Below, one piece after another: positions 6,094 through 29,861 of a DNA stretch of 37,250 bases (position 1 is the stretch's first letter; each line of letters starts with the position of its first letter). The notes below the pieces were generated by a model. That model saw nothing but the letters and a program-made list of their open reading frames with translations. It was not told where the DNA came from and made no database searches. A program made the translations under genes and the position numbers. The stretch lies in assembly GCA_964372845.1 (NCBI GenBank), contig CAYJRS010000001.1, forward strand, positions 28,823 to 66,072, written 5' to 3'. This DNA comes from Candidatus Woesearchaeota archaeon (lineage in GTDB: Archaea; Nanobdellota; Nanobdellia; SCGC-AAA011-G17; ARS1403).

Positions 6094-6651
6094 ATGTCTG
6101 TATTGAGTAATGCTCTAGATTTTTTGAGAGAATTTGGGATATTCGATGTTATACTGCCATTTCTTCTGGTCTTTGCTGTTGTCTTCGGAATTTTAGAGAA
6201 AACCAGAATACTAGGAGAGGAGAGTATCGGAAAGATAACTTATCCTAGAAAGAATTTGAATGCGATTGTTGCATTCGTTCTTGCGATGCTTGTCGTCGCT
6301 GCAACTAAAATCGTTGGAGTGATAAATGCTGCTTTGCCTCAGATAAGCTTATTGATCATTGTTGCCCTTTCCTTCTTGCTGATGATAGGGATATTTATGA
6401 AGCCTGATAATACGCTGTATGACAAATTAAATAAGGGATGGCTGACGTTTTTAATGATAATCATGTTCATTGCAGTTATACTTATTTTCTTAAGTGTAAT
6501 TCCTGCAAATGAAAATCAGAGCTGGTTGGGATTTGCTTTTGATTTCGTAATCGAGTTTTGGAGCGGAACCCTCGTAGCTACAATTATTTTGCTTGCGGTT
6601 GTAATATGGGCGATACTTTACATAACTAATCCCCCTAAAGAAAAAGAATAG
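6094..6651 (+). CDS. membrane protein, paralog 1 of a tandem triplet
   Basis: The N-terminal motif FGIFDVILPFLLVFAVVFGILEKTRILGE is shared with the next two ORFs. About 4-5 TM segments. Confidence 0.6.
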   Translation: MSVLSNALDFLREFGIFDVILPFLLVFAVVFGILEKTRILGEESIGKITYPRKNLNAIVAFVLAMLVVAATKIVGVINAALPQISLLIIVALSFLLMIGIFMKPDNTLYDKLNKGWLTFLMIIMFIAVILIFLSVIPANENQSWLGFAFDFVIEFWSGTLVATIILLAVVIWAILYITNPPKEKE

Positions 6652-6695
6652 ATTTATAAAAAAGATAAATATGCTAACTTGAAAGGTGATATTGA

Positions 6696-7268
6696 ATGGC
6701 TTTATTTGAGAACGTTGATTTCAATGATGTAGTTGAGGGCTTTGCCGACGTCGGCGGCTTTGATGTTGTTCTGCCATTTATTCTTGTCTTTGCTGTTACT
6801 TTTGCTGTGCTGAGAAAAATTAAATTATTTGGCGAGAATAAAAACGTTGATGCCATCGTAAGTTTAATCTTAGCTGCGTTCTTGGTTTCTGCTACAGACT
6901 TAGTTGATATCTTGGTTGGATTTTTACCGAGAGTGTCGATGATTGTTTTAGTGTTGTTAATGTTGATTTTAGTTGTTGGAATATTCTCAGGAGAATCTAA
7001 ATGGGGGGGAGGCTGGCTGTTTTGGGGTGCTGTTGTAGGTATTGCAGCTGTATTATGGGCTCTTGGCGCCGCTGCTGACTGGGAAGTTCCTCTTGTGGAG
7101 GAGATAACTGAGCAGGATATTGGAACTTTAATTGTGATTGGCGTCTTTGTTTTAGTCATATGGCTGATTGTCAGAGAACCAGGTGGTAAAGAAGGGAAGA
7201 GCCTTGGCAATCGCTTTGAGAGTTTAGTGAGCGGTTTGACTGGCGGTGGCGGAAAGAAAAGTCCCTGA
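6696..7268 (+). CDS. membrane protein, paralog 2 of a tandem triplet
   Basis: Carries GGFDVVLPFILVFAVTFAVLRKIKLFGE and the same TM layout. An SD-like aaaggtga sits 7 nt upstream. Confidence 0.6.
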   Translation: MALFENVDFNDVVEGFADVGGFDVVLPFILVFAVTFAVLRKIKLFGENKNVDAIVSLILAAFLVSATDLVDILVGFLPRVSMIVLVLLMLILVVGIFSGESKWGGGWLFWGAVVGIAAVLWALGAAADWEVPLVEEITEQDIGTLIVIGVFVLVIWLIVREPGGKEGKSLGNRFESLVSGLTGGGGKKSP

Positions 7269-7270
7269 AG

Positions 7271-7798
7271 ATGGTAAGTCTTATTGATTCTGGATTGGGA
7301 GATTTCTTAATACCTATTTTTATTTTTATTTTGATTTATGCTGTTATTTTTGCTGTGCTGAGGAAGACAAAAATACTTGGCGACGATGTAAATATTAACG
7401 CTGTTGTTGCATTTGTGCTGGCTGCTTTATTTGCTGTTGTGCCTGGTGCGATGAAATTTGTTTCTATTATAGCCCCCTGGTTTGTTATGCTAGTTATAAT
7501 TGCTTTCTCCCTTTTATTGGTGTTCATGTTTGGAGGGTTGAAGACTGAAAAGATCGAGCAGATTTTCAGGAATTCCACTGTTGTCTGGACGATTTTGATG
7601 ATTTCTATTATAATTGTTATGGGGGGATTGACTGCTGTTTATGGACCTATTTTCGTCGGTGGAGGGCCAAGCGGCGAGGGAGCTGGAGCTTCTGTACAAA
7701 AAGCTGTTTTCAATATTAAAGTTTTAACTACAGTAGTTATTCTGATAATATTTGCATTTGCTGTAAGATTATTGAGCTTTGAAAGCTTGCGAGACTAA
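7271..7798 (+). CDS. membrane protein, paralog 3 of a tandem triplet
   Basis: Carries LGDFLIPIFIFILIYAVIFAVLRKTKILGD and the same TM layout. It starts 2 nt after the stop of paralog 2. Confidence 0.6.
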   Translation: MVSLIDSGLGDFLIPIFIFILIYAVIFAVLRKTKILGDDVNINAVVAFVLAALFAVVPGAMKFVSIIAPWFVMLVIIAFSLLLVFMFGGLKTEKIEQIFRNSTVVWTILMISIIIVMGGLTAVYGPIFVGGGPSGEGAGASVQKAVFNIKVLTTVVILIIFAFAVRLLSFESLRD

Positions 7799-8799: not shown

Positions 8800-11700
8800 A
8801 TGGCGCTGTTTGTGAACAAAAAAGAAAAAGAATTCGATGTGGTCAATGAGGGAAGCGAGAGGGTTTTGAGATTAGATTATACAAAAAAAGCGATAATCCC
8901 CAGTATTGAAGACAGTGAAGAATGCATGCAGGATGTTATAAGCAAACTAGTTGAGGTTGCAGGAGTTAGCAGAATTGTGCTGGTGCAGCAGAGAAATTAT
9001 AATTACAGCTATAGCCAAGTTCAATTGCTGGTTGAGATTGCAAGATTGTATAATCATGTGATAAAGCAGAAAAAATTTTTAGTTCTGCCTGCAAATGAGC
9101 AGTATAAATATTTAGCCAGTAAGATAGGGATTGTTAGAAGCTTGATAAGGAGCTTGATAAGAGATCCTATTGGGGCCTATGTCGAGTTGAAAAGGATAAT
9201 CAGGGAAGAGAAAATTATTCTAAATAAATTAATCGACGAGCCTGACATCAAATCTTGCGAAATCTTGATTGAGATTTTAAATGAATTCTTTGAGATGCTG
9301 GATAAAATAAGGATAATAGAGATTGTGAAAAAAAGATTAGACGGGTATGAAGTAGGGAGCAGAGAGATTTACAGACAATTGTTTAGAGCTGAGATAACTC
9401 CAAATTTTATGTTTACCAGATTGATGTCGAGAGTTCCTGTTGATGGCGATGAAATAGACAGCTATAAGGTTGGGAATGCTGATGTAAATATTTTCTCTAT
9501 TCCTCAAGACATTAAATATTTATATCACTTAATGCCTCCTGAATTCAAACTTACCGAGGACAAACAAGAGCTGCTTGATATGGCGAGGAATGTTCTTATC
9601 GAGCATAAACCTAGGGCTGAGGAATTTATTGATCCTGAAAGGATGAGGATGACTTTTTTTAATATTGGAAGAGACTTAATGCAGGAGCTTGCCGACAGAC
9701 AAAATATTAAATTGAGCTTGAAAGAGCTTGAGGAATTAACTTCTATATTAGTAAGATACACAGTCGGTTTTGGATTGCTGGAAGTCTTGCTGCGGGATGA
9801 AAGAATTCAGGATATCACGATTAATGGTCCCATTGGCGTAACTCCAATTTTTATTGTGCATCAGAAATATGATGAATGCGTTACAAATATTATTCCAAGT
9901 GCCGAGGATGCTGAAAGCTGGGCGACAAAATTTAGGATCTTGAGTGGAAGACCATTGGACGAGGCTAATCCTATTTTGGATACTGAGTTGAGCGTTCCTG
10001 GTGCTAGAGCAAGGGTTGCTATCGTCGGAAGACCATTAAATCCTAAGGGTTTAGCCTATGCTTTTAGGAGACACAGAGATGAGCCTTGGACCTTGCCTTT
10101 GTTTATTGAGAATAGAATGATAAATCCGCTCGGAGCTGGGCTGATGAGCTTCATTGTCGACGGTGCAAGGACAATACTTGTAGCCGGGACGAGAAGTTCT
10201 GGAAAATGCGTTAAGGGAGATACTTTAATTCAATTAAGTGATGGAAACATTGTTCCTATAAACGAGATGATTAAAGGAAAAGAAGAAAAAGTTGACGGAA
10301 ACATTATTTATAGAGATGAAAATCCTCCTAAGATTGTTTCGCTAGAAAACTACAAATTAAAAAACAAGAAGTTAACTACTTATTGGAAGAGGAAAATCAA
10401 AGGCGAGAAATTAATTAAGATCAGAACTAAATCTGGAAGGGAGGTTGTAACGACTCAAGAACATCCTTATTTTACTTTCGATAGAGGAGTTAGATCTATA
10501 TTTGCTGCAAATTTAAAAGAAGGACAGTTTATCGCCGCACCGAGGAAAATTAATATCATCGGCAAAAATGCTAGAAAACAAAAAATTGATTTCAAAACTG
10601 CCGATCCTTTTTTTGAATACGACAACTACTATTTAATCGAAGGCATTACTAACTCTAGTCCTGTTAAGTTTCCTAAATACATGGACGAAAAATTAGCCGA
10701 ATTTCTTGGTTATTTATTAGGAGATGGGCACATCGATAAACATAAAATTGAGTTTACTAATTCTAATGAGTATTTAAGAGAAAGATTCAAGAAACTAATT
10801 TCTAATTTTGATATACCTTATAGGGAATTTAAAACGAGAAATACTTGGAATATTCAGATTACTTCTAGGTTGTTGAGCAGAGCTTTATCAAATACATTTG
10901 ATATTTATCTTGGAAAGAAGTCTAGTAAAATTAAAATCCCTAAAGAAATTTTGATGTCTGAAAGAAAGGTATTAGCTAGTTTTCTTAGAGCTTACTGGGA
11001 TTGTGACGGTTATATTCCTAAGGAAAAGAGAGACCTTGAAATTTGCACAAAGAGCGGGATGATGAGTAAGCAACTCCAAATGGTATTTTTACGATTTGGA
11101 ATCGTTTGTTTTTGCAAAAAGAAGATTATTGGCGGAGAGATATATTATCGAATCTTAATAAGGGGAGAATTTGTCAATAAATATGCTCAATTTATCGGAT
11201 TCAATCATCCCTGGAAATCAAAAAGATTAAAGGCTGTATTTGAAGAAGAATGGTTGGAGAATACCAATGTTGATATAATCCCTGATGGAGATTACTTTTT
11301 AAAAGAATTAAGACGAAAATTAAGAATTACCCCCCGACAACATTTATTTAGTACAGGCAAAGACTATTGGGCATATGAAAATAAAGAATATAGGGTGAGC
11401 AGAAAATGGTTTAAAATCTTGATTAACTCTTACTTTGAAAGATATAAACAATTAGAAAAATTTTCTTCTAAAATTCGGGAATTAAATAAGTTTGTTTCAT
11501 TTTACGAAGATTATGATGACTCCATGGGCCTTTTTGATGATTTAAGGGCCTTGTTGAATATTTCTTACTCTCAACTGTCGTCGTACACTAATTTTACAGA
11601 TTCATGGCTAAGAGGATTGCTTAAGAAAAAGAGAATCGGCAGTCTTGAAGATTTGAACCGTATGAGAGATGCTTATGGCTTTATTAAAAATAAATTTGTT

Positions 11701-13191
11701 GGTTTAAGAAAATTTAGTGACGAAGATTTTGATGCTCATGATTTGAAAGATTTGGTTGCCTATACCAATTTAACTTATTCTGAAGTATCAAAAAATACCG
11801 GAATATCGGAAACTATGCTTAAGTATTACTCTTCTGGCAATGTTATGGTGCCTTTTAGCAAACAAGAACTTATTATAGATTATTTGAAAAAATTTAAAAT
11901 AGATTTGATAGAGAGATTAGAACGAAGCGAGAAACTTTTAAATAGATTAAGAGATAAATTCCTGGAAAACCTTGTTTCATATGTTGGTATCGGAATGATT
12001 CTTGGAGAACTTAGAAATGAACTTAATATACAAAATGAAGAATTTGCTAGTAATAATTTATCTATTGGAACAGTATCTAATTTTTTTAATTTTCGGTACA
12101 AAAATTCCAGCTTAACTACTCTATTTGAGATTGCTAGAAAGGTGATTGATATTTATAATGAGGGCATTTCTGATGAAACTAAAAAACTTTTAGACGAGTC
12201 TTTAAAATTAGCCAATTCCGATATCTTTTGGGATGAAGTGGTCGATATTGAGAAAGTCGATTCTGATGATGAATTTGTTTATGATTTAACTGTTCCCTGT
12301 ACGCATAATTTTATTGCCAATGGGGTAATTGCACATAATACCTCCTTTTTGGGATCCTTGCTTGTTGAGGTGATGAGAAAGTACCGATTGATTACTGTTG
12401 AAGACACAATGGAATTAAGTGTAGATGCTCTGAGAGAGTTAGGATACAATATTCAACCACTGAAAGTTAGAAGTGCACTTGCTGGAGGTGCTACTGAAGT
12501 AAGTGCTGAAGAAGGAATAAGAACTGCTTTAAGAATGGGAGATAGTGCCCTTATCGTCGGAGAAATTCGTTCACTGGAATCAAAAGCACTTTATGAAGCG
12601 ATGAGAATCGGTGCTTTAGCAAATGTTGTTGCTGGAACTATTCATGGAGATTCTCCGTATGGTGTTTATGACAGGGTTGTTAATGATTTAGGAGTTCCAA
12701 AAACAAGTTTTAAAGCAACCGACATAATTGTGATCTGCAATCCTGTTAAGAGTGCTGATGGATTGAGCAAGTGGAGAAGGATTGTGCAGATAACTGAGGT
12801 AAGAAAAAAATGGGAGGAAGATCCCTTAGCTGAGAATGGCTTCATTGACCTAATGAAATATGATGCTAAAACTGATTCTCTACAGGCAACTGACGATTTG
12901 ATTAATGGGAATAGCGAGGTAATCAAAAATATTGCAAGCAACATTCCCGAATGGGCAGGGCATTGGGATGCTGTCTGGGATAATATAATATTAAGAGCTA
13001 AGATGAAGGAGGCTTTGGTAAATTATTCTAAGTACAACAAAAATATTTTAGAAGCGAAGTTTGTAATTGCTGCGAATGACCATTATCATAGAGTTAGCGA
13101 GGGAGTTAAAAAAGAGATAGGTTATCTTGATCCTAAAAGGATTTATTTTGAATGGGAAGAGTGGCTGAAGAGAGCTGCTAAGAAGATTTGA
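8800..13191 (+). CDS. type II/IV secretion-family ATPase (FlaI/ArlI/PilB/VirB11-like), interrupted by an intein in the Walker A loop
   Basis: Walker A is split as VAGTRSSGK | intein | TSFLGSL. Downstream motifs are ITVEDTMEL, GDSALIVGEIR and GTIHG (His box). The mature protein would be 752 aa with a long N-terminal region. Confidence 0.9.
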   Translation: MALFVNKKEKEFDVVNEGSERVLRLDYTKKAIIPSIEDSEECMQDVISKLVEVAGVSRIVLVQQRNYNYSYSQVQLLVEIARLYNHVIKQKKFLVLPANEQYKYLASKIGIVRSLIRSLIRDPIGAYVELKRIIREEKIILNKLIDEPDIKSCEILIEILNEFFEMLDKIRIIEIVKKRLDGYEVGSREIYRQLFRAEITPNFMFTRLMSRVPVDGDEIDSYKVGNADVNIFSIPQDIKYLYHLMPPEFKLTEDKQELLDMARNVLIEHKPRAEEFIDPERMRMTFFNIGRDLMQELADRQNIKLSLKELEELTSILVRYTVGFGLLEVLLRDERIQDITINGPIGVTPIFIVHQKYDECVTNIIPSAEDAESWATKFRILSGRPLDEANPILDTELSVPGARARVAIVGRPLNPKGLAYAFRRHRDEPWTLPLFIENRMINPLGAGLMSFIVDGARTILVAGTRSSGKCVKGDTLIQLSDGNIVPINEMIKGKEEKVDGNIIYRDENPPKIVSLENYKLKNKKLTTYWKRKIKGEKLIKIRTKSGREVVTTQEHPYFTFDRGVRSIFAANLKEGQFIAAPRKINIIGKNARKQKIDFKTADPFFEYDNYYLIEGITNSSPVKFPKYMDEKLAEFLGYLLGDGHIDKHKIEFTNSNEYLRERFKKLISNFDIPYREFKTRNTWNIQITSRLLSRALSNTFDIYLGKKSSKIKIPKEILMSERKVLASFLRAYWDCDGYIPKEKRDLEICTKSGMMSKQLQMVFLRFGIVCFCKKKIIGGEIYYRILIRGEFVNKYAQFIGFNHPWKSKRLKAVFEEEWLENTNVDIIPDGDYFLKELRRKLRITPRQHLFSTGKDYWAYENKEYRVSRKWFKILINSYFERYKQLEKFSSKIRELNKFVSFYEDYDDSMGLFDDLRALLNISYSQLSSYTNFTDSWLRGLLKKKRIGSLEDLNRMRDAYGFIKNKFVGLRKFSDEDFDAHDLKDLVAYTNLTYSEVSKNTGISETMLKYYSSGNVMVPFSKQELIIDYLKKFKIDLIERLERSEKLLNRLRDKFLENLVSYVGIGMILGELRNELNIQNEEFASNNLSIGTVSNFFNFRYKNSSLTTLFEIARKVIDIYNEGISDETKKLLDESLKLANSDIFWDEVVDIEKVDSDDEFVYDLTVPCTHNFIANGVIAHNTSFLGSLLVEVMRKYRLITVEDTMELSVDALRELGYNIQPLKVRSALAGGATEVSAEEGIRTALRMGDSALIVGEIRSLESKALYEAMRIGALANVVAGTIHGDSPYGVYDRVVNDLGVPKTSFKATDIIVICNPVKSADGLSKWRRIVQITEVRKKWEEDPLAENGFIDLMKYDAKTDSLQATDDLINGNSEVIKNIASNIPEWAGHWDAVWDNIILRAKMKEALVNYSKYNKNILEAKFVIAANDHYHRVSEGVKKEIGYLDPKRIYFEWEEWLKRAAKKI
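10207..12339 (+). mobile_element. 711-aa LAGLIDADG intein inserted at GK|T of the ATPase P-loop
   Basis: Starts CVKGDTLIQLSDG, has block B TQEH and ends VIAHN followed by +1 Thr. The two LAGLIDADG motifs are FLGYLLGDGHID and LRAYWDCDGYIP. Coordinates were derived codon by codon from frame 8800. Confidence 0.85.
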
Positions 13192-13242: not shown

Positions 13243-13264
13243 TTAGTCGGAAAATTTATATAGT

Positions 13265-13282: not shown

Positions 13283-13287
13283 ATCGT

Positions 13288-13833: not shown

Positions 13834-14248
13834 GTACTATTTAGATAAAGGAGATGTGAAAAAAGCTAAGAAAGATATAGCCTTAGCCAAATCGCTTATG
13901 AATAATCTTTCAGAAAGAGAAAAAATGGTTTTAAAATATGATTTAAAAGATGCCTTGGTTATTTATGAAAACTTGTATGATTGTTTGCGAGAGATGTGTG
14001 ATGCCCTCTTAATTTTGGATGGATACAAATCTTATTCTCATCAGGCTTCTATAACTTATCTTAGGAAATATGGGTTCGATGAACTTTTTGTTAAGAAATT
14101 AGATAATCTTAGGTTTAAACGGAACTCATCAAAATACTACGGAAAAGGATTAACAGAAGATGATGCGAAAGAGATAAAAGAATTTTATTTAAAGTATAAA
14201 GGAAGACTGCTGAATATTTTAAAACAAAAAATGAAAGAGGCCTTATGA
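13820..14248 (+). CDS. HEPN-domain protein, partner of the MNT
   Basis: Helical 142-aa protein overlapping the MNT gene by 14 nt. The HEPN-like motif region is LRFKRNSSKYYG, with Tyr where Rx4-6H would have His. Confidence 0.65.
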   Translation: MIDFEYYLDKGDVKKAKKDIALAKSLMNNLSEREKMVLKYDLKDALVIYENLYDCLREMCDALLILDGYKSYSHQASITYLRKYGFDELFVKKLDNLRFKRNSSKYYGKGLTEDDAKEIKEFYLKYKGRLLNILKQKMKEAL

Positions 14249-16356
14249 GGAAAGATGTAGAAGACATTCTGGAGAAATATAAAAGAAAATTAGAAGAGAA
14301 ATTTGACGAGGGATTTTCTGGAGAATATAAAAAATTTAAAGAGGAGCAGATTGGAAAAGAATTAAGCTTTTATGAAAAAGCATGTAACTTTTGCAAGAAT
14401 ATTTTAGCTATTAAATCTAATGAGAAAAATAATGAGAAATTGTGGGAGAGTATACAAACTACGGGTTTAAAAATAACGCCTGAAGGGGTGATGAGTCTTG
14501 CTTTCTTTTCTGCTTTCGGGTTCATTTTAATCGGAGTCGCTATTTTTGTTTTGGGGTTGGTGATGGATAGTGTTCTTTTATTTTTTCCAATATTCTTTGT
14601 TGCCCTCGGAATTTTGTTTTTGAAGATCCTTTCTAATTATCCTAATCAAAAAGCGCTGAAGTGGAGAATTCAAGCTGAGAATCAAATGGTGCTGTGCATA
14701 TTATATGTTGTGATGTATATGAGGCACACTAGTAATCTAGAGCATGCCGTGAAGTTTGCAGCTCAGCACATTCAAGATCCTCTTTCTGGTGACTTGAAAA
14801 AAGTCTTTTGGAACATTGAGACTGGAAGATATAATACTGTGCAGGAATCTTTGGATGCTTACCTTGAGAATTGGAGAGGATACAATCTGGATTTTGTAAA
14901 TTCTTTTCACTTGATCGAGAGCAGCTTGTTTGAGCCGAAAGAGGAGAGAAGACTGGAAATTCTTGAAAGGGCTTTGACAAATATGCTCGATGGGACTTAT
15001 GAGAAGATGTTGCATTATGCACAAGAATTAAAATCTCCGATTACAACGCTGTACATGCTCGGAATAATTCTGCCTGTTTTGGGCTTGATAATGCTGCCGC
15101 TGATGGGGGGATTTTTGGGGATTAAATGGTATTGGATTGCATTCTTTTATAATTTGCTCCTTCCTGTGTTTGTGTACTTTGCTGGAAATAAACTGCTGAT
15201 CAAAAGACCTGCTGGCGAGGGAGAGAGCTTTTCTCTGCAAGAAGATTTATTTGAAAACTATAAATATTTGAAAATCGGAAATGCATTTGTTAATCCTGCT
15301 GTTCTGGCTCTGCCTTTATTTCTCATAATTTTAATCATTGGTTTCTCTCCCTTGTGGATGCATGCTTTGTTTCCTAATGATCTTTATTTGAATGGTGATT
15401 GGATTTTTGGATACAGAGACGACAGCGGACCTTTTGGTTTTGCTGCTCTAGTTTTGAGTCTTGCGATACCCCTCAGCTTTGCTATCGGGTTGGGGACTTA
15501 TTACAAATTAAAGAGCAGGAAACTTGTGAAGATTAGGGAAGATACGAGAGAATTGGAGAGAGAATTTGCTGGAAGCTTGTTTCAGCTTGGAAATAGAATA
15601 GAAGATGGTGTGCCGGTTGAGCTTGCTTTTTCTAAAGTTGCGGAGAATATGCAGGGAACGATGTCTGGAAAATTTTTTAGTATGGTGAGCAATAATTTAA
15701 GAAACTTGGGAATGGGTTTGAAAGAATCTATTTTTAATATTAAAAGAGGAGCAATCTTAAGTTTTCCTTCTAAGGTAATACAAAGCAGCATGGAAGTTCT
15801 GGTTGAAAGCGCGAGAAGGGGTCCTAAGATTGTTTCGCATGCGCTTATGAGCGTTAGTAATTATATGACGGCAATACACAAAGTGAATGAAAGGCTGAAA
15901 GATTTGCTTGCTGATGTCTTGAGCAGCATGAAGAGCCAGATTAATTTTATAACGCCTTTGATTGCTGGAATCGTCGTCGGCATTGGAAGTTTGATAACGA
16001 ATATTGTTGCTAATTTAGGTCCCTTACTTGGAGATGCTGGAAGTAGCGGAGGCGGTGTTGAAGGCTTTGGAGTCGATGCAGATCTCTTAACCGGGATTTT
16101 TCCTATTAAAGATTTAATCCCGCCATTTTATTTTCAGCTCATTGTCGGCTTATATTTGGTTCAGATAACTTATATACTAACTGTATTAGCTAATGGCGTT
16201 GAGAATGGGGTAGATAAACTTAATGAGGAGAATATGCTTGGTAAAAATTTATATAAAAGCATGCTGTTTTATATTCTTGTTACGCTGATAACGACTATAA
16301 TATTGACAGTGATGGCGAGAGGAGTGATCAATGTCGGGAGCGGAGGTGCAATTTGA
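14245..16356 (+). CDS. polytopic platform protein with two T2SSF-like (FlaJ/TadC/PilC) cytoplasmic domains
   Basis: Two helical soluble segments are each followed by TM clusters. The first is NQMVLCILYVVMYMRHTSNLEHAVKFAAQHIQDPLSGDLKKVFWNIETGRYNTVQESL. The second is FAGSLFQLGNRIEDGVPVELAFSKVAENMQGTMSGKFF. The start overlaps the HEPN stop (ATGA). Confidence 0.7.
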   Translation: MRKDVEDILEKYKRKLEEKFDEGFSGEYKKFKEEQIGKELSFYEKACNFCKNILAIKSNEKNNEKLWESIQTTGLKITPEGVMSLAFFSAFGFILIGVAIFVLGLVMDSVLLFFPIFFVALGILFLKILSNYPNQKALKWRIQAENQMVLCILYVVMYMRHTSNLEHAVKFAAQHIQDPLSGDLKKVFWNIETGRYNTVQESLDAYLENWRGYNLDFVNSFHLIESSLFEPKEERRLEILERALTNMLDGTYEKMLHYAQELKSPITTLYMLGIILPVLGLIMLPLMGGFLGIKWYWIAFFYNLLLPVFVYFAGNKLLIKRPAGEGESFSLQEDLFENYKYLKIGNAFVNPAVLALPLFLIILIIGFSPLWMHALFPNDLYLNGDWIFGYRDDSGPFGFAALVLSLAIPLSFAIGLGTYYKLKSRKLVKIREDTRELEREFAGSLFQLGNRIEDGVPVELAFSKVAENMQGTMSGKFFSMVSNNLRNLGMGLKESIFNIKRGAILSFPSKVIQSSMEVLVESARRGPKIVSHALMSVSNYMTAIHKVNERLKDLLADVLSSMKSQINFITPLIAGIVVGIGSLITNIVANLGPLLGDAGSSGGGVEGFGVDADLLTGIFPIKDLIPPFYFQLIVGLYLVQITYILTVLANGVENGVDKLNEENMLGKNLYKSMLFYILVTLITTIILTVMARGVINVGSGGAI

Positions 16357-16358
16357 AT

Positions 16359-16466
16359 ATGAATAAGAAAGGGATGATGGACAAGATTATTGTAATTGTT
16401 CTGATTTTGGTATTGGCAATATTATTATTTTTAATACTTGCAAAGGTGATGAAATTTGTTTTTTAA
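16359..16466 (+). CDS. 35-aa pilin-like micro-protein
   Basis: Not in the track. Manual translation gives MNKKGMMDKIIVIVLILVLAILLFLILAKVMKFVF*. It starts 2 nt after the platform gene stop and has the same MNKKG plus hydrophobic-helix N-terminus as the larger pilin-like genes. Confidence 0.45.
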   Translation: MNKKGMMDKIIVIVLILVLAILLFLILAKVMKFVF

Positions 16467-17115
16467 TAGAAGAGGAATTGCTATGGAAAATTTAGTTACT
16501 ATCGTCCTTATTGTTGCCGGGGCGATCATTATAATTCTTGCTATGACTGGACTTTTTAAGCAGGTAGTTTTCTGGAATGTTCTCTGTAAAAGCACTGTTT
16601 ACTTGTCAGACCAAGTTTTGGGCTTTGTTGATCCTATATGCAAAACACAGTATAAAGAATTTAAAGATAAAGAGGATCTTGCTGAAAGCATGGCGACTGC
16701 ATGGAATGTTTTTGGCGAGGGAAATTTAAATCCTAGTGGCACAAATTGGTTTAAGTGGAACGAGTTGAGATGCTTCAAATATTATAGAGGTGATGTTAAG
16801 GAAGAACTGATAGGGGTTACTGGAGGAGAATTTCAGAGATATTTAGTTGATACTAAGGGGAAAAATGCAAAGAAAAGTTACTGGAATTATTTTAATAAAG
16901 GCGAGGTTGATTTTAAAAGAGTGATTGTAGGCTTTGATAAGCTGGAGGAGGGAGACCTTATTGCTATACTTTATTTTGAAGAGGTTGAAAGCGCTGCATT
17001 GAATCCATCTTCATGGGTATATAATCTTCTTGAAGCTTTGCTCGGAGACATCGAGGATAGAATCGTTGTTGTTAAGGATAATCCCGGAGTGCAAGTTAAT
17101 TGCGTCGAAATATGA
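16456..17115 (+). CDS. pilin-like secreted protein (4 Cys)
   Basis: A TTG start gives MFFNRRGIAMENLVTIVLIVAGAIIIIL, an RRG plus hydrophobic helix. An alternative ATG lies at 16483. Confidence 0.5.
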   Translation: MFFNRRGIAMENLVTIVLIVAGAIIIILAMTGLFKQVVFWNVLCKSTVYLSDQVLGFVDPICKTQYKEFKDKEDLAESMATAWNVFGEGNLNPSGTNWFKWNELRCFKYYRGDVKEELIGVTGGEFQRYLVDTKGKNAKKSYWNYFNKGEVDFKRVIVGFDKLEEGDLIAILYFEEVESAALNPSSWVYNLLEALLGDIEDRIVVVKDNPGVQVNCVEI

Positions 17116-17126
17116 TGAGGCATGAT

Positions 17127-17273
17127 ATGAAAAAGGGAATGTTTGCTTTGGGCGAGACTACTAAATTGATTTTGATTTTGATAGCGCTGGTGCTCTTGAT
17201 TTTTTTTATTTACTTTTTGAGAGATAAGATAACAGATTATGTTGAATTCATTTCAGATTTTTTGAATCCGTAA
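17127..17273 (+). CDS. 48-aa pilin-like micro-protein
   Basis: Not in the track. Manual translation gives MKKGMFALGETTKLILILIALVLLIFFIYFLRDKITDYVEFISDFLNP*. The next gene starts 1 nt after its stop. Confidence 0.45.
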   Translation: MKKGMFALGETTKLILILIALVLLIFFIYFLRDKITDYVEFISDFLNP

Positions 17274-17274
17274 A

Positions 17275-17922
17275 ATGGCAGATGAAGAAGAAAGCAGTGG
17301 AATTGGAACGGTTATAGGCGTGGTTGTACTGCTAATAGCTCTTGTTACTCTCGGTTGGCTTTTTGCTTCTAAGTCTGGGGAGGTGACTAAACTTGCTGAT
17401 AAATTCTTTCCAGATTCCGAGGAGCTGGGGGAAATAAAGAAAATACAGGAAGATGTATTTGAGGGAGAAGAAATCATGATGAAAAAAGAAGAGGAGGCTG
17501 CGGAGGCGATTTTAGCTGTTTTTGAAAGACTTTCTAGAAGTAAAGATGATGAATGCATAATGGATTTTACATTCGATAAGATTGAAGACAAGGATTTTAA
17601 AATAAAAGTTGACGGGAAGAGAGTTGAAGTCTTGAAGAAAGATGGTTTGAGGGTGTATAGAAATGAGGAGCCCTATAAGAAAAAATTTTTTTTTATGAAA
17701 AGCAGAGTGATTAAAACAGAAAAAGGAAATATCTTAGAAAGAGGGGTTAAGGCAGAGGAATTATTTTTTATTACTGATGAACTTAGTAAGATTAATAATG
17801 AGTTTGTCTTAGGAAAATGGATATATGTAGAGAAGGATTCTGTTTATTTTTTAGATAGTGATACTTCTTTTGAATACTCCGGACTGCCTGGGTTTGAAAA
17901 AAGAAAATGCAAAATTAATTAG
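17275..17922 (+). CDS. N-terminally anchored hypothetical protein of the pilus operon
   Basis: MADEEESSGIGTVIGVVVLLIALVTLGW is a single N-terminal TM segment, followed by an acidic region. No family recognised. Confidence 0.5.
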   Translation: MADEEESSGIGTVIGVVVLLIALVTLGWLFASKSGEVTKLADKFFPDSEELGEIKKIQEDVFEGEEIMMKKEEEAAEAILAVFERLSRSKDDECIMDFTFDKIEDKDFKIKVDGKRVEVLKKDGLRVYRNEEPYKKKFFFMKSRVIKTEKGNILERGVKAEELFFITDELSKINNEFVLGKWIYVEKDSVYFLDSDTSFEYSGLPGFEKRKCKIN

Positions 17923-17984
17923 AAAAGTTTAAATAAGAAAGCTTATATATGAGTAATAACTTTGTTAAAAAAAGGTGAAACTGA

Positions 17985-18356
17985 ATGGATAAGAGAGGTC
18001 AAGAAGGGCTTTCTATGAATACTATTATAATTGCGATTATTGGCATCATAGTTCTGCTTTTGATTGTTACTTTCTTTACAGGAGGCATGTCAACTATATT
18101 TAATAAAATAAGAGGGGTGTTTGGAGGCGGTACTGCTGGATACGACGTCGATCTGGCTAAAGCACAGTGCCAGTCTTATTGTGAGAGAGCAAAATTAAAC
18201 CAAGAGACTTCACAGCCGACGTCTACATATTGCACGCAGGTGTTTGATATCCTGAAAACCGATGGAAGCGGAGATACTGAACCGCAAAAATGCGGTGCTA
18301 TAACGAGTAAAATATTCACTTCGTGTAGAATAAACAATGTTCAGATTACTTGTTAA
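17985..18356 (+). CDS. pilin-like protein (6 Cys)
   Basis: N-terminus MDKRGQEGLSMNTIIIAIIGIIVLLLIV. SD-like aggtga and TATA-like elements lie upstream. Confidence 0.6.
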   Translation: MDKRGQEGLSMNTIIIAIIGIIVLLLIVTFFTGGMSTIFNKIRGVFGGGTAGYDVDLAKAQCQSYCERAKLNQETSQPTSTYCTQVFDILKTDGSGDTEPQKCGAITSKIFTSCRINNVQITC

Positions 18357-18370
18357 TTTTTTCTTTTCCT

Positions 18371-18562
18371 ATGAATAAAAAAGGTTTAACTTGGAGCACA
18401 ATTGTTTATGCAATAATTGCGATAATAGTTTTGATAGTCATTGTCTGGATTTTTCGAGAGCAGATAAATGAGATTTACAAAAGCTTAACTGTGATCATCA
18501 AAGGGACTAGCAGCGGCGCTGAAGATGCTGGCAGGGAAATTAAAGACTTAATTAAAAGCTAA
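18371..18562 (+). CDS. 63-aa pilin-like protein
   Basis: N-terminus MNKKGLTWSTIVYAIIAIIVLIVIVWI. The ATG at 18371 is preferred to the track start at 18350. Confidence 0.55.
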   Translation: MNKKGLTWSTIVYAIIAIIVLIVIVWIFREQINEIYKSLTVIIKGTSSGAEDAGREIKDLIKS

Positions 18563-18595
18563 AGTTTATATATTTTTTAAACTAAATTGCCTGAC

Positions 18596-19387
18596 ATGAA
18601 TAAGAAAGGAGTTTTTACATTGGAGTTTACAATAAGTCTGGTTTTAACTGTTCTCGTACTTATTATTCTTGGTGGTTTTCTGCTTAAAGCGTATTCTTCT
18701 CAGCAATGTCCTGTTGGTTATAATATAATTAATGATTTTTCTGATCCTACAATCTATGAATTATGCGGCAGTGCTGAAAAGTTACAGGAGAATAAACAAA
18801 GATGCTGCCAAAGGAAAAGCGATCTCAATGAAGTTTGCTTGTGGGATATGGAGGATAAAGAATATTTAAGGTGTGATAAGATATCTTTGTTTAATTTTAA
18901 TAATGTTTGCTTGGATAATACTAAATGCGGGGTTTCTAGTAGAGAATGTTCTGGAGCTTATTGCGAGAAAGGGGTTTGCCTTGTGGAAAATGGAATTGGG
19001 AGATGTGTTGAGAAATTCAATATCGGAGAAAAAAGAATCAATATTGAGAGCAATGCCCTTTGTATTGAAGGTGTGAGGGATAATATTCTTGGAAGCAAAT
19101 GCGAGGGCGAAAAAGGATTGCATTGCATCTTCGACATTAAAAATAGTAGAGCTTTATGCAGAGGAGGTGGATTCTTGGCTATTAGCGAGCAAGATGCTTT
19201 TAATGAGTGTGGAGGACTATGCGAGGAAGCGAAAGAGAGATTTACTCCTAGTGAGATGTTTAAATCTGAATTTTGCAGAAGAGGTGCAATACCAGTAAGT
19301 TCTGGCGGCAAAGATAAGCCTATTATGAAGAAATGTTCTGAGATTTATCCTGACTGCAAATGTGGAGTATCCTCTCCAGAAGAATAG
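18596..19387 (+). CDS. cysteine-rich pilin-like protein (22 Cys)
   Basis: N-terminus MNKKGVFTLEFTISLVLTVLVLIILGG, with Glu at +5 after the Gly. The ectodomain has 22 cysteines. The ATG at 18596 is preferred to the TTG at 18587. Confidence 0.6.
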   Translation: MNKKGVFTLEFTISLVLTVLVLIILGGFLLKAYSSQQCPVGYNIINDFSDPTIYELCGSAEKLQENKQRCCQRKSDLNEVCLWDMEDKEYLRCDKISLFNFNNVCLDNTKCGVSSRECSGAYCEKGVCLVENGIGRCVEKFNIGEKRINIESNALCIEGVRDNILGSKCEGEKGLHCIFDIKNSRALCRGGGFLAISEQDAFNECGGLCEEAKERFTPSEMFKSEFCRRGAIPVSSGGKDKPIMKKCSEIYPDCKCGVSSPEE

Positions 19388-19426
19388 ACAAAAACAAATA
19401 TAAATTAAAGAAATTTAGGATAATAT

Positions 19427-19807
19427 ATGAATAAAAGAGGCGAAGGGTTAGTACAGATTCAGACTGTTGAGTTTGCTTTCCTAATTGTTCTTGTTATATT
19501 TTTTTCTGTAAGGCTTTACCAACCTATTGAAGAAAACAAATTGAATCAGATTAAAGCTGAAGATTTGGCTTTAAGTATTGAAAGTTTGCCGATACTTAAT
19601 GGAGACTTGAGATTGGACTACAAGTTTGGAGATGAATACTATATTGAAGAAATCAACAATGTTATTTTCATTTATAAATTATCTGAAGTAAAAAAAGGCA
19701 GAAGCAAGGTGGGTTTAGAAAATAGTTATGATTTTGCTGAAAACATTAATGATAAGACAGAGGCTATTGTGATTGAAAAAAAAGGGAAGAAGGTGGTGAT
19801 TTACTGA
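19427..19807 (+). CDS. pilin-like protein
   Basis: N-terminus MNKRGEGLVQIQTVEFAFLIVLVIFF. It is the first of four translationally coupled genes. Confidence 0.6.
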   Translation: MNKRGEGLVQIQTVEFAFLIVLVIFFSVRLYQPIEENKLNQIKAEDLALSIESLPILNGDLRLDYKFGDEYYIEEINNVIFIYKLSEVKKGRSKVGLENSYDFAENINDKTEAIVIEKKGKKVVIY

Positions 19808-20208
19808 TGGGGGGCATTCTTGGCAGCAAGTTGGGATTTTATATCTTCTACATTTTACTTTTTACTATAGGGATTGTTCAAGTTGCCAGATTAATTAATA
19901 TTGAAGGCGAATATATTTTTAAAATTGCCGACGCTGAAGACAGGGTAGTTGTGTATAGGATAATAAAATGTGCTTCTGAAAATAATAGGTTTGGAATCAT
20001 AGATGAGTCTAAATTCGATGAAGAGATATTGAAAAATTGTTTGGGAGGGAAGTATAGTTTTTCAACAAGCTTAAAGAAATCAGAGGGATTGAATAAAAGA
20101 GTTGAGGCGGGTAGTTTGGAAAAAGATGTTAGGGATATTGCTAGGTACGTGATTGTTAACGGTAAGGGAGCAAAGCTTGAGGTGAGGTATAGTAAAAATG
20201 TTGCCTGA
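19807..20208 (+). CDS. N-terminally anchored hypothetical protein
   Basis: N-terminus MGGILGSKLGFYIFYILLFTIGIV. There is a 1-nt TGATG overlap with the previous gene. Confidence 0.5.
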   Translation: MGGILGSKLGFYIFYILLFTIGIVQVARLINIEGEYIFKIADAEDRVVVYRIIKCASENNRFGIIDESKFDEEILKNCLGGKYSFSTSLKKSEGLNKRVEAGSLEKDVRDIARYVIVNGKGAKLEVRYSKNVA

Positions 20209-20695
20209 AGATATTCAAGATCTGATAATTGCTACAGCTTTGTTGTTGATACTTCTAATAATTGGAAAATTTATTTATAATATATATGGAGCCGATTTTT
20301 CAGCAAATAGGTATATCTCTAAAGATGTCGACTTCAATGATGAAGAGAAATTTTTCTTGTTGAATTTCCTTAGAGCAGAAGCTGGAACTGGGGGGATTTC
20401 TGAATTAATATCTAAGAGCGAAGGTGAAACTAACTTGATTTCTTTACAGGAGATTAGCGAGAGTTACCTAGGATCTTATTTTGGCGGAAGAAATTATATC
20501 ATGAAGGTCCAGTATTCTGATGGGAAAGTTAGATTCATTACTGCTTCACATGCATGGGGTTTACCTAAGGGTGAGAGAGGGATTCCGACGGAGAAGCAGA
20601 AAAAATTTTGGTTTGAATTAGGCGACGGAGAAAAATTCAGAATACCTTCTTTAAAACAAGGATTAATTACAATTGAATTGAAGGTGGAAAAATGA
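20198..20695 (+). CDS. N-terminally anchored hypothetical protein
   Basis: N-terminus MLPEDIQDLIIATALLLILLIIGKF. It overlaps the upstream gene by 11 nt. Confidence 0.5.
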   Translation: MLPEDIQDLIIATALLLILLIIGKFIYNIYGADFSANRYISKDVDFNDEEKFFLLNFLRAEAGTGGISELISKSEGETNLISLQEISESYLGSYFGGRNYIMKVQYSDGKVRFITASHAWGLPKGERGIPTEKQKKFWFELGDGEKFRIPSLKQGLITIELKVEK

Positions 20696-21429
20696 ATAAC
20701 AGAGGGGCTTTATTTGCAACTTTAACTATGATAATTATGATAATCTTTGTTATTAGTATTAATGCTAGAAAGACACAAATATTAGAAGAAACTAAAATTG
20801 TTGAGACTGGAAAAATTCCTGATATTGCTATATACTTTTCTATAGAAGAAGAGACGATGAAGTTTTTTATTGAAAAATCTATGGAATATGCTTCTTTTAA
20901 TGCTCTGAAGAAAATGGGAGAGGAAGGCGGAATCTTAAAAGAGCAGAAATGCGAGAAAGTAAATGAATATGTAATATGGAAAGATGATTGCTATTTTTCT
21001 GATAACCTCGAGGAGAATTTTTTTAGTAGATTTGAAGAATTTTTTAACAATTATTTAAAAGAATATGGAGCAAGTAAAGTAAATACTGATTGGGAAATAG
21101 ATGAGAATAATAAATTCGTTATAGAAGCGGATGGTATAATTGAGCTGGAATACAAAGGAGTGAAATATGGATTCGAGCCCGATATTAAATCTGTTTTGGA
21201 TTACGACTTTAGTTATTATACTGAGATTTTAAGAAAAGCTAAAGAATGCTTGAGAGACGAGGAGTTAAAGGGGATTACAAGAAACAACTTATTTGAGAAA
21301 TGCAGAAATGACAAGGATTTTAAATGGGGGGTAAAAGTCGAAGATAAGTTTGTATTATTTAGTGTTTCTAAACCTTACAAAAATTTAGGGGATGTTTCTG
21401 TGAAATTTGCTATTCCACACAATCAATAA
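20692..21429 (+). CDS. pilin-like protein (4 Cys)
   Basis: N-terminus MNNRGALFATLTMIIMIIFVISI. There is an ATGA overlap with the upstream gene. Confidence 0.55.
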   Translation: MNNRGALFATLTMIIMIIFVISINARKTQILEETKIVETGKIPDIAIYFSIEEETMKFFIEKSMEYASFNALKKMGEEGGILKEQKCEKVNEYVIWKDDCYFSDNLEENFFSRFEEFFNNYLKEYGASKVNTDWEIDENNKFVIEADGIIELEYKGVKYGFEPDIKSVLDYDFSYYTEILRKAKECLRDEELKGITRNNLFEKCRNDKDFKWGVKVEDKFVLFSVSKPYKNLGDVSVKFAIPHNQ

Positions 21430-23512: not shown

Positions 23513-26500
23513 ATGGATAAGATAGAGGATTTACCAGGGGTAGGGGCTGCGACCGCTGAAAAATTAATAAGTGCTGGATATGGTAATTTTATGTCGATAG
23601 CTGTTTCTAGTCCTGGAGAGATGGTTAATATTGCAGGGGTTACCGAGGCTACTGCTAGAAAAATAATAAATGCTGCCAGAAGCAAATTAGATATGGGGTT
23701 TGAAACTGGAGAAGAGCTGCTGAGAAAAAGAGAAAATGTTACTAAAATTTCTACTGGCAGTCAAAATTTAAATGCTATGCTTGGAGGAGGAATTGAAACT
23801 GGAGCTATAACTGAAGTTTATGGCGCCTTTGGCTCGGGAAAATGCTGCTCTTTTGAGACACCTGTTCTTTATTTTAATAATCATAGCCCTCATATTGAAC
23901 CTTTATCGGCTATCTATGAAAAATATAAGGAACTCCATGAGGAAAGGAAACAAGATGATGGTTTCTTTGTTGAAACTCCTGAGATAGAGGTTATTGGATT
24001 AGAAGGGAGACATATTAAAAAAACAAAAGCTGCTGGCATTTACAGAGAGTTTGTTGATAAACTCTATGAGATAAAAACAGGAAGGGGAAGAAAATTGAGA
24101 ATTACTGGATCACATAAACTTCTTTCTTTTTCAAAAGGATTACAATGGATGCCTGCCGGAGGGCTTAGCCAAGGTGATTTAATTGCGCATCCTAGAATCT
24201 TGCTCTATGATGGCGAAAAAACCATAAGCGAAGATGACGCTTATTTCTTGGGTTTATATGTGGCTGAAGGCGGAGGTAGAGGCATTTCTAATAATAACAA
24301 AGACCTTGTTCGTTGGATTGAAAATTATACCTTTAGTATGTTTGGATTTAAACCCAAAATTCATGAAGATAAGAGAAGAAAAGATGTTTGCTATAATCTC
24401 GGGCTTAGGAATGCTATGAAGCCTTTGCTTGGCGACCTTATGAAGTGTAACTCATCGAATAAATATATTCCTGAGTCTGTATTACTTGGAGATGAAAATA
24501 TCATAAAATCTTTCCTAGCTGGTTACGTTGACGGCGATGGTTATTTACCTGAAGATGGAGAGATAGAGATGACAACTTATAGCAAGACTCTAGCTAACAA
24601 TTTAAGTTATCTGCTGTTAAGATTAGGAATCCGTTGCTCTTATACAGAAAAAACTGCCGATGGAAAAATCTACTTTAGACTCTTTGTTTGTGGAGAGGAT
24701 AGAATGTTATTCAATACCTTGCCACTTAAATTAAAAAAAAGTTTTTATTCTTTCAGAAATAGTAAATATGGATATCCTTTACCTATTATTCGATACATTG
24801 CAGAAACTTATGCAGGAACTCTTGGAGGCAATCGCGGTTCTCATCGAAAAATTATTGGAAAACAGGCTAGTTATCATAAAGGAGAGAGATATATTTATGA
24901 CACTCTTAATCAGAAAACAAGAACTAATAGCCTTAATGATAAAACTTTGCTTGCAATTAAACTTCAATTTGAAGAAGGATTGAAGATTATTAAGGAAGCC
25001 TTGCTACTTGCGACTAGATTAGAGAAATTAAGCAAAGATGAATTTAATAATTTGCATAAACTACTTCCTTTCTCATTTAATATGATTCATGCGAGCATCG
25101 GAATCAAGCCTTCTACTACAACAAACTATATGCAAAGAGGACTTCCTAAAGATGTGGCTAAAGTGGGGAAGATAAAATCTTATATTATGCAGGAACTTCT
25201 TTTAAGAGAGGATAAACTATCGAGGGCGATTGCAGATATTAACAATGTGCTTTATTTTGCTTGGGATACAATCACAGAAATAAAACCTGTTGATTATGGG
25301 GATTATGTATATGATTTAGTTGTTCCTGAAGGGCATTTATTTGTTGGAGGGAATTTACCGACGATTTTGCATAATACTTCTCTTGCGCATCAACTAGCTG
25401 TTAATGTTCAGCTTCCGAGAGAAAAGGGCGGCGCTGAAGGAATTGCTGTTTGGATTGATAGCGAAGGGACAATAAGGCCTGAATACATTGCAAAATTAGC
25501 TGTAGCTCAAGGTTTAGATCCTAAAGGAATTTTGAAGAATTTTAGAGGGGTGAGGTCATTCAACAGCGATCATCAGGTGCTGCTTGCTGAAAAGGTTGAA
25601 GATCTAATAAAGGAAGGGTTGCCTGTCAAAATAATAATTGTTGATTCCTTGATGGGGCATTTCAGAAGCGATTTTTCTGGAAGGGGAGAGCTTGCTCCTC
25701 GTCAACAGAAATTAAATAAGCATTTGCATACTCTGCTTAAATTAGCAACTCAATATAATCTTGCAGTGTATGTTACAAATCAAGTGATGGCAAAACCTGA
25801 CACATTTTTTGGAGATCCTACTGAAGCCATCGGGGGACATGTGCTTCATCATGCTTGCTTAACTCCAGATACTTTGCTTCAATTGGCTGATGGAACGATT
25901 CTACCTATAGAAAATTTGACCAGATATGCCTCATTACCGGCTATTGACTTTAAGGATATGAAATCAAAAACTTTATTTTGTGACTTTGGTTCTAAAAGGA
26001 TGGATATTAAAAGAATATACGAAATAGACACTGGAAATAAAATTACGGCATCTGCAAGGCATAGGTTTTTTAGATTGAATAGATTACATATTGAGGAAGT
26101 TGAAGCTAAGGATCTTAAAAATGGCGATTATTTAATGCACTTAAACTTTATTGACATAGACGGCGAATTACAAAAGCTTCCTGAAATTGAACATAAAGAG
26201 CTTGTTAAGCTGAAGAAGGAAGGTGCGGATATAATCAAGGACGAACTTAAAATTAAAGGATTGACTAGGGAAAATATTTGTAAGGAAACTTCTATTAAGC
26301 CAAGGCATCTTAGAAGAATTTTAAATCAGGGCTATCCAACACAAAAAGAAGTTGTAGAGCATTTAATAAAATTAGCAGACCCTGCCGAAAGTGGAATTTA
26401 TGAGTATATAGAGGTATGTGAAACTAATAAGCATAAAATCTTAACTATTCCAAGAGAGTTAAACGAAGATTTTGCTCAGTTATTGGGATACCACCTAGGA

Positions 26501-28197: not shown

Positions 28198-28409
28198 TAT
28201 TTTCTTTAGTATTTCTTTTTTATTTAAAAACTTCTTACTATTATTTTGTGATGATTTAACCAACCACCTAATGCATTTTTTCTATTTTTGGTTAAGAAAA
28301 TAGCCCTTTATTTAAGACAATGCTATAATTCCATTAATTCTGATAATTACTGTTATTGGTTATTATAATTGTTTTTGCTTCACAAGAAAAGCTTTAGGGT
28401 TTTTATCAA

Positions 28410-28499
28410 CGTCCCCGCACGGATTCGAACCGTGGGTTTCAAGGTCCGCAACTTCGCAGCAAGAGCACTTGCGTTTTATCCAGACTAAACTACGGGGAC
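28410..28499 (-). tRNA. tRNA-Arg (anticodon GCG) with a 15-nt intron (28453..28467) placed between positions 30 and 31
   Basis: Manual fold gives acceptor GTCCCCG/CGGGGAC, D arm GTTT-AGTCTGGATA-AAAC and T arm CACGG-TTCGAAT-CCGTG. The anticodon region is 32 nt. Only removal of TGCTCTTGCTGCGAA gives a perfect arm, CAAGG-TTGCGGA-CCTTG, with T33 and G37. No CCA is encoded. Confidence 0.8.
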
Positions 28500-28522
28500 A
28501 CGATGGAAAAACAGGAAATAGC

Positions 28523-29585: not shown

Positions 29586-29861
29586 ATGGCAAAGGTTGTT
29601 GTTACTTTAAAGATTATGCCTGAGAGTCCTAAAACTGATTTGGATAAATTGCAGAAAAAAGTTCTGGAAAAAATAAAAAATGTTATAGGCGATACAGAGA
29701 CTAAAGTTGAGAAGGAAGCTATTGGTTTTGGATTGAATGCCTTAAAGATTTTATTTGTGATGGATGAAAATAAAAACGTTGATATTATAGAAGACGGAGT
29801 AAGGAAAATTAAAGAAGTGCAGTCTGTTGATGTGACTGATGTCAGGAGAGCTATTGGCTAA
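29586..29861 (+). CDS. ef1b: translation elongation factor aEF-1 beta
   Basis: The signature is MAKVVVTLKIMPESPKTDLDKL...AIGFGLNALKI...VDVTDVRRAIG, typical of aEF-1beta. Confidence 0.85.
   Translation: MAKVVVTLKIMPESPKTDLDKLQKKVLEKIKNVIGDTETKVEKEAIGFGLNALKILFVMDENKNVDIIEDGVRKIKEVQSVDVTDVRRAIG

Follow-up and report, generated by a model that had tools for sequence, protein, structure and literature searches.

The stretch of DNA analysed here (the window) comprises 37,250 nucleotides of a Candidatus Woesearchaeota archaeon (GenBank assembly GCA_964372845.1, contig CAYJRS010000001.1, positions 28,823 to 66,072), and it raises the question of what a 711-aa insert is doing inside the P-loop of a pilus or secretion ATPase: whether it is removed by splicing, whether it moves between alleles, and whether it serves its host. 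The explanation that we hold with considerable confidence is a selfish class 1 LAGLIDADG intein, capable of both splicing and homing, that splits Walker A (GTRSSGK|T) in a type IV pilus-like ATPase from a DPANN (Woesearchaeota/Nanoarchaeota-type) archaeon. All coordinates below are window positions, and all features lie on the forward (+) strand unless stated otherwise.

Translation of the window gave a precursor of 1463 aa from one open reading frame (ORF, 8800..13191), with family matches to the type II/IV secretion ATPases (T2SSE), to inteins and to LAGLIDADG endonucleases. The insert (nt 10207..12339, 711 aa) is placed between GTRSSGK and TSFLG, and the coordinates and length given in an earlier model-made reading of the letters alone (the sequence-only reading) were reproduced exactly. 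The upstream junction, GTRSSGK|CVKGDT, falls at precursor residue 470 and the downstream junction, VIAHN|TSFLG, at residue 1180. The N-extein (8800..10206, 469 aa), delimited by alignment to the 2oap, CpaF and FlaI structures and to intein-free orthologues, combines a lengthy N-terminal region with the N-terminal ATPase domain and closes with the Walker A stretch ...AGTRSSGK. The C-extein (12340..13191, 283 aa plus stop) starts with the Walker A Thr (TSFLGSL) and carries the Asp box ITVEDTMEL, the Walker B motif LIVGEIRS and the His box AGTIHG. The Lys and Thr of Walker A are thus on separate exteins, and therefore an intact Walker A exists only after splicing, as had been claimed before.

The exteins were joined in silico to a 752-aa sequence, and a database search with it returned more than 6,000 relatives, the nearest being P0001 (752 aa) and P0002 (751 aa), two orthologues without the intein, at about 90% identity. 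Both are uninterrupted at the P-loop, reading GTRSSGKTSFLG with no residue extra or missing (P-loop stretch AGTRSSGKTSFLGSLLVEVMRKY). The spliced extein is likewise gapless at the P-loop against the GspE2 structure 2oap (vagtrssGKTsflgsll / vvgetasGKTttlnaim) and against the CpaF and FlaI structures. The contigs of P0001 and P0002 (L001 and L002) are syntenic with the window, the common gene order being DEAD helicase, TraB-like gene, small genes, ATPase, nucleotidyltransferase, HEPN and a membrane protein of about 700 aa. Intein-free alleles in related bins, which the sequence-only reading had suggested looking for, were thus found, and their empty-site DNA reads ...GGAAAA|ACT and ...GGCAAG|ACG. 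Contigs assembled from four independent metagenome runs, which belong to two studies, cross both junctions of the window gene (in run X1, for example, a contig covers 9600-12648 with 5 mismatches), and therefore the insert is not an assembly artefact.

Family searches recognized the splicing domain at both ends of the insert, with matches well above chance level. Pfam Intein_splicing matched with E = 4.9e-28 (98 bits, cut-off 35.8), and the NCBIfam models for the intein N-terminal region (TIGR01445) and C-terminal region (TIGR01443) matched with E = 1.3e-15 and 4.8e-08. The N-terminal HINT portion, located by TIGR01445 (aa 1-90) and by the beta-strands of the structural model, spans intein aa 1-115 (10207..10551). 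It contains block A with Cys1 and block B (T83-x-x-H86), which reads T83-Q-E-H86, with H86 invariant in an alignment of 31 sequences. The C-terminal HINT part (aa 670-711, 12214..12339) holds block F, VYDLTV...HNF with D693, and block G, VIAHN with H710 and N711; it also has sequence matches in PDB to the CDC21, DnaB and RadA mini-inteins. C1, T83, H86, D693, H710 and N711 are all invariant in 14 alleles at the Walker A site, and the +1 extein residue, which is the Walker A Thr, is Thr in nine of ten genome loci and Ser in one. Between the N-terminal HINT part and the endonuclease lies a linker of short beta-strands in the model (aa 116-157, 10552..10677), which is variable and has indels among the alleles.

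The predicted fold agrees with these assignments. The AlphaFold2 model of the intein, built from the 31-sequence alignment, reached a predicted local distance difference test score (pLDDT) of 92.1 and a predicted template modelling score of 0.80. A Foldseek search of this model against PDB gave the TliVMA intein (7qss) as top match (E = 1.3e-22, template modelling (TM) score 0.71, target-normalized), with target-normalized TM scores to the TliVMA intein of 0.71-0.73 overall. PhoVMA, PI-PfuI and PI-TkoII followed, and then PI-SceI, free LAGLIDADG enzymes and mini-inteins, the last with root-mean-square deviations of 1.9-2.6 Å from the predicted model. The residues and the predicted HINT fold of the 711-aa insert make it a canonical intein of class 1 (Cys1 ... 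His-Asn, then +1 Thr). A class 2 (KlbA-type) identity was considered and rejected: the insert sits at Walker A and has Cys1, His710 and Thr+1, and not Ala1, Ser G:6 and Cys+1 at the His box. Cys1, TQEH, the terminal HN, the +1 Thr and two LAGLIDADG motifs, all named in the sequence-only reading, are present. The exteins align to intein-free homologues (P0001, P0002 and 2oap) with no missing or extra residue, and the modelled insert matches crystal structures of inteins with HINT and homing endonuclease domains; both outcomes support the intein reading. Residue conservation indicates that the intein is probably active.

In the proposed course of events, the 1463-aa precursor would be translated whole, Cys1 would make an N-S acyl shift, and Thr+1 would then attack the thioester. 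Asn711 would cyclize with the assistance of His710 and so release the intein, and ligation of the exteins would yield the ATPase of 752 aa, its GTRSSGKT P-loop intact. Before splicing, the protein probably neither binds nor hydrolyses ATP, and thus pilus assembly would depend on splicing. The freed 711-aa intein would act as a site-specific DNA endonuclease and cut intein-free alleles near the junction GGAAAA|AC(N); copying from an intein-bearing allele during repair would then insert the intein there.

The LAGLIDADG domain spans aa 158-347 (10678..11247), where LAGLIDADG_3 (PF14528) matched two stretches (E = 1.9e-19). The first motif (nt 10693-10731) is LAEFLGYLLGDGH and includes D173, and the second (nt 10972-11010) is LASFLRAYWDCDG and includes D267. 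The model of this domain matched I-DmoI and I-Tsp061I (TM 0.64-0.74, target-normalized) and has the alpha-beta-beta-alpha-beta-beta-alpha pseudo-dimeric fold. Of the two catalytic residues, D173 is present in all 14 aligned alleles and D267 in 13, so that 13 of the 14 have both, over a range of 37-54% identity to the window intein.

Distribution and composition point in the same direction. The nearest host orthologues (85-94% identity by extein segment) are without the Walker A intein, while more distant hosts (45-73% identity by extein segment) have it. The GC content of the intein is 30.8%, compared with 38.5% for the exteins. Nucleotide identity to the two intein-free alleles is 71-73% in the 150-bp bin at the insertion site, compared with 79-80% gene-wide, and the changes flanking the site (10150..10206 and 12340..12400) are all synonymous. 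This dip in identity is possibly due to drift of the target site in the occupied allele or to a co-conversion tract. The sporadic host distribution, the low GC content, the presence of relatives at other P-loops and the identity dip fit intein mobility.

To these observations can be added the range of alleles. In a search with the intein only, full-length relatives were obtained at 41-60% identity, and those that could be placed (P0121-P0126 and P0161-P0163) all occupy the same site in the same ATPase family. One of them, P0122, comes from a Candidatus Woesearchaeota metagenome-assembled genome (MAG) and is named 'Flp pilus assembly complex ATPase component TadA' at NCBI. When one genome of each GTDB species was scanned, ten further genomes were found to have an intact intein of 684-707 aa at GTR[SG][SA]GK|C...HN|[TS]S (loci L003-L012); they belong to Woesearchaeota, Nanoarchaeota and Nanohaloarchaeota, including a Nanohalobium. 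The next-nearest relatives, at 24-30% identity, sit at the GK|T/S position of SRP54, SMC, MCM, a HerA-like ATPase, V-ATPase A and EF-2. The sequence-only reading had called 711 aa large for an intein. This holds in comparison with inteins of about 510 aa elsewhere in the host protein and with crystallized homing-endonuclease inteins of 361-537 aa, but not for its own allele, which measures 684-707 aa in the ten genomes.

The size, some 200 aa in excess, is due to an all-helical accessory region of about 315 aa (aa 355-669, 11269..12213). The helix pattern of two models divides it into four helix-turn-helix-like units, numbered 0 (nt 11269-11460), 1 (nt 11506-11712), 2 (nt 11722-11970) and 3 (nt 11974-12213). 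Each unit consists of a helix, two short helices and a long helix, with sequence of the type L..LR..L.IS..EFA...G.S..T.S, and the region modelled alone gave a pLDDT of 90.7. The four-unit reading is based on this secondary-structure pattern and on homologues. Unit 3 of homologue P0123 is an above-threshold HTH_3 match (31.5 bits), and P0129 and P0131 have HTH_3 matches of 43-46 bits after the endonuclease, whose correspondence to unit 0 was judged by eye. In the 14-allele alignment units 0 and 3 are best conserved and units 1 and 2 least, and the number of units differs: P0123 (630 aa) is missing unit 2 and keeps three, while P0163 (539 aa) is missing units 1 and 2 and keeps two. The four-unit region is uncommon: it matched just ten cluster representatives among 1.84 billion proteins, and the placeable ones are all alleles of this intein. 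An accessory domain between endonuclease and C-terminal HINT is known from TliVMA, PI-PfuI and PI-TkoII; intein accessory domains containing a helix-turn-helix have already been described, and the one of TliVMA was shown experimentally to modulate target choice (PMC8966425). By analogy with TliVMA, the four units most likely extend or modulate DNA-target recognition, and this is the weakest step of the proposed explanation.

Several observations weigh against a selfish element that homes at present and is guided by these units. The units of the window scored 13-18 bits against HTH_31, HTH_60 and HTH_3, under the cut-offs of 23-27. A fold search of the whole accessory region against PDB gave nothing significant (best E = 0.048, to ClyA-like helical bundles), the helix-turn-helix matches in it being local and low-ranked. 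Because of these sub-threshold scores and the missing significant fold match, the units are named helix-turn-helix-like. Self-BLAST of the region also detected no significant internal repeat at the sequence level. In the populations sampled, a same-strain intein-free allele (a joint skipping 10207-12339) was not found in the assembler contigs of the four metagenomes, which drop rare variants. Furthermore, the ratio of non-synonymous to synonymous single-nucleotide polymorphisms (SNPs) is 5:4 in the intein and 0:6 in the exteins, a tiny sample. The pattern suggests that the endonuclease and accessory parts are under relaxed constraint, which tells against current homing.

The last two observations also bear on the strongest alternative, that the intein is splicing-competent but fixed, with an endonuclease that no longer homes, and is inherited vertically as a passenger late in the homing cycle. 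In its favour are the missing same-strain empty site, the concentration of non-synonymous polymorphism in the endonuclease and accessory parts, and the loss of the second catalytic Asp in one of the 14 alleles. We regard it as possible but unlikely: both catalytic Asp residues are intact in the window and in 13 of 14 alleles that span 37-54% identity to the window intein, no mini-intein derivatives were seen at the Walker A site, and the distribution is sporadic, with the closest host relatives lacking the intein. The selfish, homing class 1 intein remains the preferred explanation.

Two further proposals assign a function to the insert or its parts. In the bolder one, the array of helix-turn-helix-like units is a plug-in DNA-targeting module for site hopping, and splicing has been co-opted to gate maturation of the pilus ATPase. 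A variable array could let one LAGLIDADG lineage re-target the almost universal GK|T/S codons of such unrelated P-loop NTPases as the pilus ATPase, SRP54, SMC, MCM, V-ATPase and EF-2, and the pilus ATPase, invaded at three motifs and often at two together, might have its maturation gated by splicing so as to control attachment to the host cell. We consider these two readings improbable. The narrower proposal is a co-opted conditional splicing switch, responsive to redox state, temperature or host-cell contact, that gates pilus assembly in an episymbiotic DPANN cell. Circumstantial points in its favour are the position in the catalytic P-loop, which probably leaves the unspliced protein inactive, the retention of the allele in at least eleven DPANN lineages, and the precedent of other P-loop inteins, such as that of P. 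horikoshii RadA, for which conditional splicing is documented (PMC4513877, PMC5790916). However, no second Cys placed for a disulphide trap and no other sensor feature was identified in the intein, conservation of homing sites accounts equally well for the P-loop placement, and close relatives manage without the intein, so a switch of this kind appears quite improbable. That the insert does not splice at all, being a domain insertion or an assembly chimera in an ATPase pseudogene, is scarcely credible, because the same in-frame, stop-free arrangement occurs in the four runs and in ten other genomes, the splicing residues are all invariant, and the exteins are under strong purifying selection (6/6 SNPs synonymous).

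The host family of the preferred selfish intein is invaded at further motifs. Inteins of about 510 aa are present in the same orthologue family at the Asp box (ITVED|S...HN|TLELP in P0035, P0057 and P0089) and at Walker B (GEIRS|S...LHN|TEAKAL in P0003, P0101 and P0113); P0003, whose identity to the window protein is about 89%, carries an intein at Walker B and none at Walker A. A second intein accompanies the Walker A one in five of the ten genome loci, at the Asp box in L004, L006, L009 and L010, 22 residues downstream in the mature protein, and at Walker B in L011. In these double-intein loci the C-terminal side measures 777-816 aa, compared with about 283 aa for an uninterrupted C-extein. 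The window gene has the Walker A intein alone. In a more distant T2SSE ATPase family, KlbA-type class 2 inteins occur at the His box (TGHDG|A...SN|C in P0129, P0132 and P0136), and P0136 matched the nuclear magnetic resonance structure of Mja KlbA (2jmz) with E = 1.4e-34.

The window itself holds other inteins. The gene for a RadA/Rad51 recombinase (23513..27478, 1321 aa) contains two homing-endonuclease inteins, one of 512 aa in the P-loop (GAFGSGK|C...LHN|T, nt 23843-25378) and one of 497 aa (GGHVLHHA|C...VHN|S, nt 25859-27349). The idea that the three inteins of the window are recent copies of one another was rejected: their identity is only 25-27%, so they are three unrelated inteins.

Comparison with known systems places the element in a familiar kind. 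The best sequence and fold matches of the window intein are the VMA-b inteins TliVMA and PhoVMA (7qss, 7qst, 7qsu; PMC8966425), which are likewise class 1 with Cys1, interrupt GK|T of a P-loop, and combine HINT, LAGLIDADG and accessory domains in the same order; the accessory domain of TliVMA contains a helix-turn-helix. They differ in host protein (V-ATPase subunit A of Thermococcales), in sequence (about 25% identity) and in the accessory domain, which is small (whole inteins of about 370-430 aa), whereas that of the window has about 315 aa with four repeated units. Mja KlbA and its orthologues share the host superfamily of type II/IV secretion ATPases, which are therefore established intein hosts in archaea; unlike the window intein, they occupy the His box (TGHDG|A...SN|C.GT.HA) with Ala1, Ser G:6 and Cys+1 and follow the class 2 route (PMC4031507). 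RadA-a (P. horikoshii RadA), MCM-a, RFC-a, DnaB-b and the SRP54, SMC and EF-2 inteins have the identical Walker A/G1 insertion point, but they belong to other host families, show 24-30% identity and have mostly zero, one or two helix-turn-helix units, compared with four. Closest of all are the public alleles from DPANN MAGs (e.g. P0122 and L003-L012), which share the host orthologue, the site, the length of 684-707 aa and the four-unit region at 37-60% identity; they come from other species, and five of ten have a second intein at the Asp box or Walker B.

The sequence-only reading had implied that an intein in a pilus or secretion ATPase is a rarity, which is overstated. The Mja KlbA intein in an archaeal type II/IV secretion ATPase has long been known (PDB 2jmz; PMC4031507). 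Table 3 of Novikova et al. (2015; PMC4760082) gives counts of 21 inteins for archaeal VirB11/COG0630 proteins and 5 for CpaF, and many ATPases bear inteins in their P-loops (PMC4760082). In the literature on inteins in FlaI, secretion ATPases and DPANN, no description of this allele was found, the P-loop placement of Novikova's VirB11 inteins being outside the scope of that search. Sequences of the DPANN Walker A allele with its four-unit region are already public, and both the kind of element and the kind of site are well known. Somewhat new, in a modest sense, are the occupancy of one ATPase family at three motifs (Walker A, Asp box and Walker B), often at two together, and the variation in the number of accessory helix-turn-helix-like units among alleles.

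In practical terms, a DPANN pilus ATPase that measures 1,100-2,000 aa in a metagenome bin is the intein-bearing form of an enzyme of about 750 aa, and public records label such proteins as TadA or secretion ATPase with the intein unflagged. The family is a well-populated case of catalytic motifs of P-loop NTPases as intein hot spots, with three sites here and a fourth in the distant T2SSE family. The natural series of alleles that differ in unit number might be of use for studies of accessory-domain specificity and for meganuclease engineering. The understanding of inteins and pilus ATPases is unchanged by this case.

The identity of the host protein was analyzed from its family matches and its neighbours. 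The spliced extein matched PF00437 (T2SSE) with 55.8 bits (cut-off 24.9) and the PDB structures of GspE2, CpaF and FlaI with E from 1e-28 to 1e-17, and Walker A, Asp box, Walker B and His box are all readable. These results place the host protein in the type II/IV secretion ATPase superfamily (PilB/GspE/FlaI/CpaF/VirB11). FlaI, the archaellum motor in the FlaI/PilB-type label of the sequence-only reading, was rejected at the equivalog level (NF058587, 109 bits vs a cut-off of 550), and no archaellin family matches were found among the scanned neighbours of the ATPase. Downstream lies a run of eight small genes (16456..21429) with no Pfam matches, several of which encode [KR]G followed by a hydrophobic stretch at the N-terminus (MNKRG/EGL..., MDKRGQEGL... 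and MNNRGALF..., then a hydrophobic helix). A [KR]G followed by a hydrophobic stretch is typical of the (class III) signals of archaeal type IV pilins, and these genes probably encode pilin-like subunits of the filament assembled by the ATPase. A gene with family matches to Peptidase_A24 and Arc_PepC encodes an archaeal prepilin peptidase (29858..30727, minus strand). Because the FlaI equivalog score is far under its cut-off and pilin-like genes and a prepilin peptidase are present, the host is best regarded as the ATPase that assembles a type IV pilus-like filament in a DPANN archaeon, not an established FlaI. The intein-bearing gene has to give a functional ATPase: among the scanned ORFs of the window it is the sole T2SSE ATPase adjoining pilin-like genes, in a conserved pilus-like locus with a membrane protein and a prepilin peptidase.

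Two genes separate the ATPase from the next membrane-protein gene: one for a winged helix-turn-helix nucleotidyltransferase (13264-13833) and a HEPN-like one (13820-14248). Their position is kept in the orthologous loci L001 (10950-11942) and L002 (2466-3473), where NTP_transf_2 and HEPN were matched. They resemble an MNT/HEPN toxin-antitoxin pair, for which this would be an unusual location. The following gene (14245..16356), a conserved neighbour in L001 and L002, encodes a polytopic membrane protein of 703 aa with no Pfam match, which by its position is a candidate for a highly divergent platform protein (FlaJ/TadC analogue). Three tandem paralogous genes (6094..7798; 185, 190 and 175 aa) with no family assignment are located just upstream of the pilus locus; their products have similar N-termini of the form ...F(D/G)V(I/V)LPF(L/I)LVFAV.F..L.KT.I(L/F)G....

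Two minor observations were also made. Within the ATPase gene, the word depth of the contigs rises about five-fold (e.g. 152 vs 30 in run X1) across 12597..12707, the conserved GTIHGDSPYG His-box region, which indicates many related strains or paralogues with a common stretch in the samples. In addition, a tRNA-Glu(CTC) is located at 28409..28500 on the minus strand; its length of 92 nt is about 20 nt above the standard, which suggests an archaeal tRNA intron.

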